DNA from: Escherichia phage WPEC2 | Reading direction: 5' to 3' (one strand) | Sequence record: PV691511.1 | DNA length: 64,000 nt | Shown here: piece after piece, positions 32,896 to 33,855 of the stretch | Layout: each line of letters begins with the position of its first letter | Numbering within the stretch: the stretch's first letter is position 1 | Made by a program: the position numbers and the translations under genes | Notes under the pieces: model-generated | Database searches by the model: none | The model's input: only the letters and a program-made list of their open reading frames with translations | Told to the model about the DNA's origin: nothing

Positions 32896-33192
32896 ATGCC
32901 TAAACTAAAACGTGGTCGTGGAAGACCAACAGCCGAAATGCAACAGATTTACGCAATGGATGCGGCGCAAGCAAGTGTAAAAGAATTATTTGCAGAGCAT
33001 TATTTAGAAGCTATGCGGTATATTGTTGAACTTGTTAATGATAAGGATGCAGCAAAACCTCTCCGCTTCCAAGCAGCTAAAGCTATTAAAGAGCAAGTAG
33101 AAGAATGGTTAGAAGAACATTATGAAGCTATGGAAGAAGAAACCCCTGCCGTGCAGAATACAGATGACGTTCCTAAAAAGATCGTAATCTAA
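32896..33192 (+). CDS. small AT-hook-containing protein
   Basis: KRGRGRP AT-hook-like motif at N-terminus, own promoter, RBS and terminators. Confidence 0.55.
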   Translation: MPKLKRGRGRPTAEMQQIYAMDAAQASVKELFAEHYLEAMRYIVELVNDKDAAKPLRFQAAKAIKEQVEEWLEEHYEAMEEETPAVQNTDDVPKKIVI

Positions 33193-33855
33193 TCCCTCTC
33201 CTCTCTTGGGGCTTTGCCCCTCCTCCTTGTTATTTTTAACACCCCTCTCCGAAAGGTTAGGGGCTTTTTTTTCATTCTCCTCTTCTGCATTTCTTATATA
33301 TGGTGAAACACCGTACTCTTTAGCTACTTTAACCCAATCGTCCCATTTATACAACCATAATTTTCCTTCGGTCCCTTCTTTATCTGATTTCAACCACATA
33401 TTAGGTTGCTTACCTGGGTACATGCGATTAGGTTTACGATTATAACCTCTAACACATCTTGTCGCAAACCTATCTACCAGAACAAGAACATATTTATATT
33501 CGTGGTTCAACGGCTCTTTGGAAGTGGCTTTAGGATTAGCTCCTAATTCTGCTGCCAGTTTTTGCCAATGAGCACCGTGTCTACTAAACTTACCCATACA
33601 ACCATCAATAGCATGAGCAATTTCGTGCTTCATTGTATCCACGATCATATCTCTTGTAGAGTTCTTATGCAAGTGCCAATTTACAACAACAATTTTATCT
33701 CGGTAGTTGCACCAACCGAAAGAGTTATTCACTTTGTTTCTAACACAAGCTTTATATCCTGCTTCACGTAACATGTTGTAGTAAACAGGAAAATCTTCTT
33801 TTATTTCCTGCATCACTTCCCACCACAAGAGTTGCAAGTCTCTCTCGGTATGCAT
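33109..33855 (-). CDS. SprT-like zinc metalloprotease domain protein
   Basis: HEIAHAIDG (HExxH) followed by HGAHW; low-complexity C-terminal tail overlaps convergent gene. Confidence 0.55.
   Translation of the reverse strand: MHTERDLQLLWWEVMQEIKEDFPVYYNMLREAGYKACVRNKVNNSFGWCNYRDKIVVVNWHLHKNSTRDMIVDTMKHEIAHAIDGCMGKFSRHGAHWQKLAAELGANPKATSKEPLNHEYKYVLVLVDRFATRCVRGYNRKPNRMYPGKQPNMWLKSDKEGTEGKLWLYKWDDWVKVAKEYGVSPYIRNAEEENEKKAPNLSERGVKNNKEEGQSPKRGEGLDYDLFRNVICILHGRGFFFHSFIMFF
33242..33272 (+). terminator. rho-independent terminator (second of tandem pair)
   Basis: CCCCT..GAAA..AGGGG hairpin followed by T8; preceded by GGGGC-ttt-GCCCC at 33208-33220. Confidence 0.6.

Follow-up and report, generated by a model that had tools for sequence, protein, structure and literature searches.

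The apparent 84-nt overlap between a plus-strand gene for a 98-aa protein and a minus-strand gene for a SprT-like protein is very probably (at about 0.93) an assembly artefact that arose from contigs misjoined at 33270|33271 of the window, the whole stretch of 64,000 nucleotides analysed here; the case for the misjoin is drawn from the comparison of assemblies, not from read coverage. As the sequence reads, the plus-strand frame (32896..33192, 98 aa) and the minus-strand frame (33109..33855, 248 aa, stop codon at 33109-33111) in the open reading frame list have 84 nt in common (33109-33192); this pair of frames and the extent of their overlap, as described in an earlier note on this DNA, are borne out in the sequence. 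The interpretation that came with them, that of a genuine convergent overlap in which terminators are embedded, is unsupported: the joint at 33270|33271 appears to be false. The feature resembles true convergent gene pairs with a bidirectional terminator or a 3' overlap in its facing reading frames and in the G+C hairpins at their ends; unlike in such pairs, the U tract is confined to the plus strand, no relative shares the overlap, and one of the two reading frame ends is not native.

The two genes and the terminator between them

The 98-aa open reading frame (32896..33192, plus strand) is a real gene of phrog_3330 (PHROG match 1e-34) and a homologue of phAPEC8_00143; it is 100% identical to its counterpart in phAPEC8 (61356-61652) and in many other records. 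A cluster of plus-strand tRNA genes is found directly upstream of it, and in canonical genomes the gene itself stands directly upstream of the packaging module. An eleventh tRNA gene, tRNA-Tyr at 31460-31544 (plus strand), was detected with Rfam at 39 bits and was not reported by ARAGORN; it is annotated in phAPEC8 and WPEC4. The designation of the 98-aa protein as an AT-hook protein is borne out only in part. The protein carries KRGRGRP at residues 4-10, near its N-terminus, and the label is based on the GRGRP within this motif (residues 6-10); the protein has no significant Pfam or NCBIfam match. Names given to this phrog_3330 protein in public records are mutually inconsistent, ranging from “terminase, small subunit” (LR597654.1) to “RNA polymerase sigma factor” (OM362897.1).

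The minus-strand reading frame matches the SprT-like family PF10263 significantly at residues 31-107 (36 bits against a cut-off of 25.6), in agreement with its earlier labelling as SprT-like, and its translation contains HEIAH, corresponding to HExxH, at residues 77-81; the 180-position profile of phrog_6445 (SprT-like protein) covers residues 1-179. The predicted assignment as a SprT-like zinc metallopeptidase applies to native residues 1-195 only. These are encoded by codons 1-195 at 33271..33855 (minus strand), from which the final GAA and the TGA of the native gene are absent, and they are identical in the window and in the assemblies WPEC6, WPEC4, and WPEC1; divergence sets in at residue 196. 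The reading frame ends after 196 aa in WPEC6 and phAPEC8 (...EEENEE*), after 206 aa in WPEC4, after 248 aa in the window, and after 264 aa in WPEC1, and the sequence that follows residue 195 differs by assembly. Since these reading frames all diverge after residue 195, codons 196-248 with their stop (33109..33270, minus strand) would represent artefactual read-through into pasted sequence, antisense to the terminator and to the 3' end of the 98-aa gene. Conserved native ends, as in a true convergent pair, are not found for this reading frame; residues 196-248 depend on the assembly and lie outside the family profile. The 53-codon open run past the junction is within chance expectation; counted over all its positions and frames, the next stop is at least 53 codons away in 15% of cases in the window. 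The exact 248-aa product corresponded to no recorded gene in a search over 153 billion gene positions.

By comparison with its relatives, the predicted native SprT-like protein is 196 aa long and ends in ...EEENEE*. The earlier note had left a choice between a real tail with colliding mRNAs and a minus-strand gene that is effectively shorter. The first branch is not supported: residues 196-248 appear to be read-through, and the native genes are located approximately 57 kb apart. The second branch predicted the right outcome but for a different reason, a misjoin and not the terminators.

The same genes occur in phAPEC8 (JX561091; 00143, 00209, and 00210) at 96-100% identity, yet in a different setting. 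Unlike in the window, the 98-aa gene and the SprT-like gene (118701-119273/119291) of phAPEC8 are 57 kb apart, and the terminator behind the 98-aa gene is followed by the spanin and terminase genes. The TGA of the phAPEC8 SprT-like gene at 118701 overlaps the ATG of the TelA-like gene 00209 (ATGA), an arrangement that suggests translational coupling.

Two hairpins are located within the tail of the minus-strand reading frame, and one of them qualifies as a terminator. The G+C hairpin at 33242-33263, followed by C and a T run at 33265-33272, has the structure that defines an intrinsic terminator on the plus strand (33242..33272) in RNA folding, and the equivalent site is annotated as a rho-independent terminator in phage ASO2A (MZ726793.1). 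The five-pair G+C hairpin GGGGCTTTGCCCC (33208..33220, plus strand), obtained by RNA folding of plus-strand positions 33193-33280, has no adjacent U tract and carries no terminator annotation in ASO2A; alone, it is not convincing as a terminator and falls outside this definition. Thus, the two plus-strand terminators originally claimed are reduced to one good terminator and a bare hairpin. A consensus terminator scan reported neither hairpin because of its loop and stem rules; the hairpin calls were based on folding and on the ASO2A annotation in place of the scan. Both hairpins also fold as minus-strand RNA, but neither has a U tract behind it on that strand, and the terminator serves only the plus-strand 98-aa gene. 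Of its T run, the first six T (to 33270) are native, and the last two are part of the pasted block.

The junction and the mosaic structure of the window

The window consists of DNA of a phAPEC8-like myovirus (Phapecoctavirus, Stephanstirmvirinae). In a base-by-base comparison, the joint reads ...AGGGGCTTTTTT (phAPEC8 61730) | TTCATTCTCC... (118707); at this false junction (33270..33271), phAPEC8 61730 / WPEC4 94575 meets phAPEC8 118707 / WPEC4 8019, with neither an N run nor a linker in between, which speaks against a misjoin. The sequence to the left of the joint matches phAPEC8 60830-61730, and the sequence to its right matches phAPEC8 118704/118707-127748; phAPEC8 positions 118702-118706 and 61731-61737 are missing from the window. 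In megablast searches against 50,697 phage records, 126 of them related, homology on the left stops at window position 33270 and homology on the right begins at 33268-33271. The adjacency that a true convergent pair would be expected to show in relatives was not found; none of the 126 related phage records spans the junction, and in all 126 the left and right parts are separated by 55-58 kb (approximately 57 kb in phAPEC8, between a left part at 61150-61730 and a right part that starts at 118704-118707). In phAPEC8, these 57 kb accommodate the terminase, portal, capsid, tail, DNA polymerase, and primase genes. The 40-mer at the junction was not found in viral, genome, or metagenome contigs (the metagenome contigs being searched with a pattern tolerant of T-run variation), and a 451-mer across the junction had no match in E. 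coli genomes or plasmids.

The block structure of the window extends beyond this junction. Window positions 1-3110 correspond to phAPEC8 6736 down to 3345, in inverted orientation; they are followed at 3108-3259 by a lone 152-nt fragment (phAPEC8 352-503) that lies between unrelated blocks, has its centre at a break site near phAPEC8 428, and matches a 2k de Bruijn graph edge in size. The next block, 3260-33270, corresponds to phAPEC8 31921-61730 and leads up to the false junction. Behind the junction, a misplaced block of 16.7 kb (33271-49945; phAPEC8 118707-134878) contains genes for the SprT-like protein, a TerC-like protein, NrdD/NrdG, a UvrD-type helicase, and others. The remainder (~49937/49944-64000; phAPEC8 61731/61738-75794) is the native sequel to the terminator, with spanin, large terminase, portal, and head genes. 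The flanks of the 16.7-kb block adjoin directly in at least nine records: phAPEC8, ESCO37, Mt1B1_P17, SF1-1, and ASO2A, and also nieznany, tuntematon, PNJ1809-36, and BI-EHEC. A 57-kb deletion as the origin of the junction is ruled out; the native sequel to phAPEC8 61730 reappears at window position 49944, and the intervening DNA is therefore an inserted block.

At least five contig joints are present in the window (3110|3111, 3259|3260, 10105|10106, 33270|33271, and ~49944); as at 33270|33271, the other window junctions occur in no related record. At 10105|10106, the contigs meet in the correct order and the 4-nt variable core [C/T]T[C/T][C/T], found in bridging fragments of WPEC4, is absent; a loss of these 4 nt would frameshift the phAPEC8_00104 homologue. 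At the joint near 49944 (49943-49945), the phAPEC8_00237 homologue loses its ribosome-binding site.

The window differs from phAPEC8 in other respects as well. At approximately 9877-9881, phAPEC8 38543-40413 is absent from both the window and WPEC4, with the genes for glucose-1-phosphate thymidylyltransferase and dTDP-glucose 4,6-dehydratase; of the rhamnose set, only the epimerase and reductase genes are left. Since this region is contiguous in both assemblies, its absence is probably a real difference. Window positions 23644-25949, which correspond to WPEC4 genes annotated as ATPase and phosphoesterase, and 42322-43307 have no megablast match to phAPEC8; both are probably ordinary strain-specific insertions.

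Related assemblies and the proposed origin of the joint

The records WPEC1 (PV659873.1), WPEC4 (PV682947.1), and WPEC6 (PV763039.1) originate from one laboratory and one host; a literature search on the WPEC phages yielded no relevant result. Every block of the window has 100.000% identity to WPEC4, and only the order and orientation of the blocks differ; window block ends coincide with the WPEC4 block ends at 94575 and 8018/8019. The two assemblies thus present the same sequence with different neighbours, as misjoined contigs would. A point against the misjoin is that WPEC4 itself is unbroken at 24693 and 152685, which correspond to two of the window joints; the source assembly of the window therefore had contig ends of its own.

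The window, WPEC1, WPEC4, and WPEC6 share a break point directly behind AGGGGCTTTTTT, beyond which a different sequence follows in each of the four. WPEC4 runs into the inverted TelA-like gene from phAPEC8 118701, and WPEC1 and WPEC6 run into one common third region in opposite orientations; such a recurrent break point with differing partners is a further hallmark of misjoined contigs. All three records resemble the window in their break sites, those at phAPEC8 61730 and 118701/118707 among them, and WPEC4 and WPEC1 resemble it in having lost the SprT-like stop codon. Unlike the window, all three have other block orders and lack the 61730|118707 joint; WPEC6 also differs from the window in that it has kept the canonical junction of the SprT-like and TelA-like genes in one long contig.

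In WPEC4, a heap of approximately 60 fragments of 75-87 nt or 149-164 nt occupies positions 38926-45582 (6.6 kb). Every fragment of this heap has its centre or an end at one of six phAPEC8 sites (~428, 7350, 31920, 40645, 61733, and 118704), and five fragments bridge the canonical adjacency of the SprT-like stop and the TelA-like start; short bridging fragments of about k and 2k, as expected around misjoined contigs, are therefore present in WPEC4. The canonical 154-nt bridge between the SprT-like and TelA-like genes, which contains ...GGACTTGTCATTCTTCATTCTCC..., is a single-copy sequence in 67 ordinary records and in WPEC6; WPEC4 contains 13 copies and WPEC1 contains 7. We infer that the fragment sizes of about k and 2k reflect short edges of a de Bruijn graph that surround small clusters of variants, with the caveat that the agreement of k=77 with sizes of 149-164 nt is no more than approximate. 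At its two ends (1-328 and 155467-155794), the WPEC4 record carries exact inverted copies of 328 nt, another sign of contig-level duplication.

The six sites each contain a core of 5-7 nt with 2-3 variable positions, which occur in nearly all combinations and differ mostly by transitions; examples are GT[C/T][A/G]TT[C/T]TTC at ~118704 and T[A/C]TTTTT[A/C]ATG at ~61733. In several core variants, ACG or ATA replaces an ATG start codon, or the spacer that separates the ribosome-binding site from the ATG is altered. The cores coincide with assembly breaks, the long blocks stop precisely at the core edges, and the cores are missing from the window at 10105|10106, 33270|33271, and ~49944. This variation may reflect a systematic error, a mixture of phages in the population, or genuine hypervariation at these places.

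A scenario that is consistent with these observations starts from a source record in which de Bruijn graph contigs from a single phAPEC8-like phage, also that of WPEC4, were set end to end, with several contigs placed in the wrong order or orientation; we infer an assembler with k of approximately 77 and a manual or naive concatenation of its contigs. At 33270|33271, the left contig would end just past the terminator of the 98-aa gene, and the right contig would begin one codon short of the SprT-like stop. Long contigs would stop at the edges of the variable cores, and with contigs ending exactly there, CATTC (phAPEC8 118702-118706) would be lost; these five bases carry the final GAA of the SprT-like gene and two bases of its TGA, and the third TGA base (118701) would be gone with the neighbouring contig on the TelA side. 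With GAA and TGA lost, the frame would stay open by chance for 53 further codons, through the terminator and the antisense strand of the 98-aa gene. In the phage itself, the tRNA cluster and the 98-aa gene, all on the plus strand, would end at the intrinsic terminator and be followed by the spanin/terminase late module; some 57 kb away, a minus-strand operon would comprise the TerC-like gene, two small unknown genes, the SprT-like gene (196 aa), and the TelA-like gene. The transcripts of the 98-aa gene and the SprT-like gene never meet in the real phage.

Alternative explanations and consequences

A genuine rearrangement, by which the 16.7-kb block (phAPEC8 118707-134878) would have moved behind the terminator in the phage or in a subpopulation and created a true SprT-like fusion reading frame, is very unlikely, although several features of the block would suit it: the insertion is clean, with flanks that resume at phAPEC8 61730 / 61738 and only a 7-nt core lost; gene boundaries are no more than 10 nt away from either end of the block; and junction B shows a 5-nt microhomology, TTAAT. 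A rearranged genome would not be expected to show one break point whose partner differs between all four of the near-identical assemblies, nor block ends that are graph-edge ends, and fragments that bridge the canonical arrangement are present in a sibling record. The missing cores would be left unexplained; the rearrangement would also cost the SprT-like gene its stop codon and the 00237 homologue its ribosome-binding site, and it would split the 98-aa gene from the packaging module. Finally, the junction is found in no other record or contig searched.

Even less probable is a related reading in which the six break sites, including 61730-61737 and 118702-118706, are true hot spots of local hypermutation and of occasional illegitimate recombination, and the 61730|118707 junction, together with the convergent overlap, exists in a minority of WPEC-type genomes. 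Two specific recombination routes were considered and rejected. For site-specific recombination (phAPEC8_0049 is a putative recombinase), the break sites have no common core and the partners differ between assemblies; for excision via the 9-nt direct repeat CTCCTCTTC, copies of which lie close to the two ends of the block, the observed ends are out of register.

The long tail could also be taken as a real, lineage-specific extension of the SprT-like protein, and the overlap as a means of antisense or transcriptional-interference regulation; the reading frame is, after all, open for 248 codons, and the hairpins can form on minus-strand RNA as well. This proposal is highly improbable, as the family profile stops near residue 180 and the relatives end at residue 196, and as a tail whose sequence changes with each assembly, whose exact protein is unrecorded, and whose open length is within chance gives no indication of a native extension. 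That a point sequencing error (a substitution or a T-run indel) erased the stop of a correctly placed SprT-like gene is barely conceivable: the junction does fall within an eight-T homopolymer, a classic site of length errors, but beyond the lost stop follows DNA from 57 kb away at 100% identity and not the TelA-like gene of the relatives, and the origin of the sequence past the T run rules out a homopolymer length error in particular. The earlier note had named a sequencing error with a missed stop codon as the finding that would overturn its reading; a stop is indeed hidden by an error, but this error is a contig misjoin and not a point error.

If contigs were misjoined as proposed, the consequences for data quality reach beyond this gene pair. 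Any feature that extends across a joint of the window is suspect, whether it appears as a fusion reading frame, an odd neighbour, or an apparent deletion; contig misjoins in the window and in the WPEC records create false fusion reading frames and false gene neighbourhoods. The public “complete genomes” of WPEC1 and WPEC4 show the same type of defect, concatenated contigs, and include stray graph edges, several kb in total, that are annotated as tiny hypothetical genes. For the biology of the phage, the misjoin would mean that the convergent overlap, the mRNA collision, and the extended SprT-like protein do not exist.
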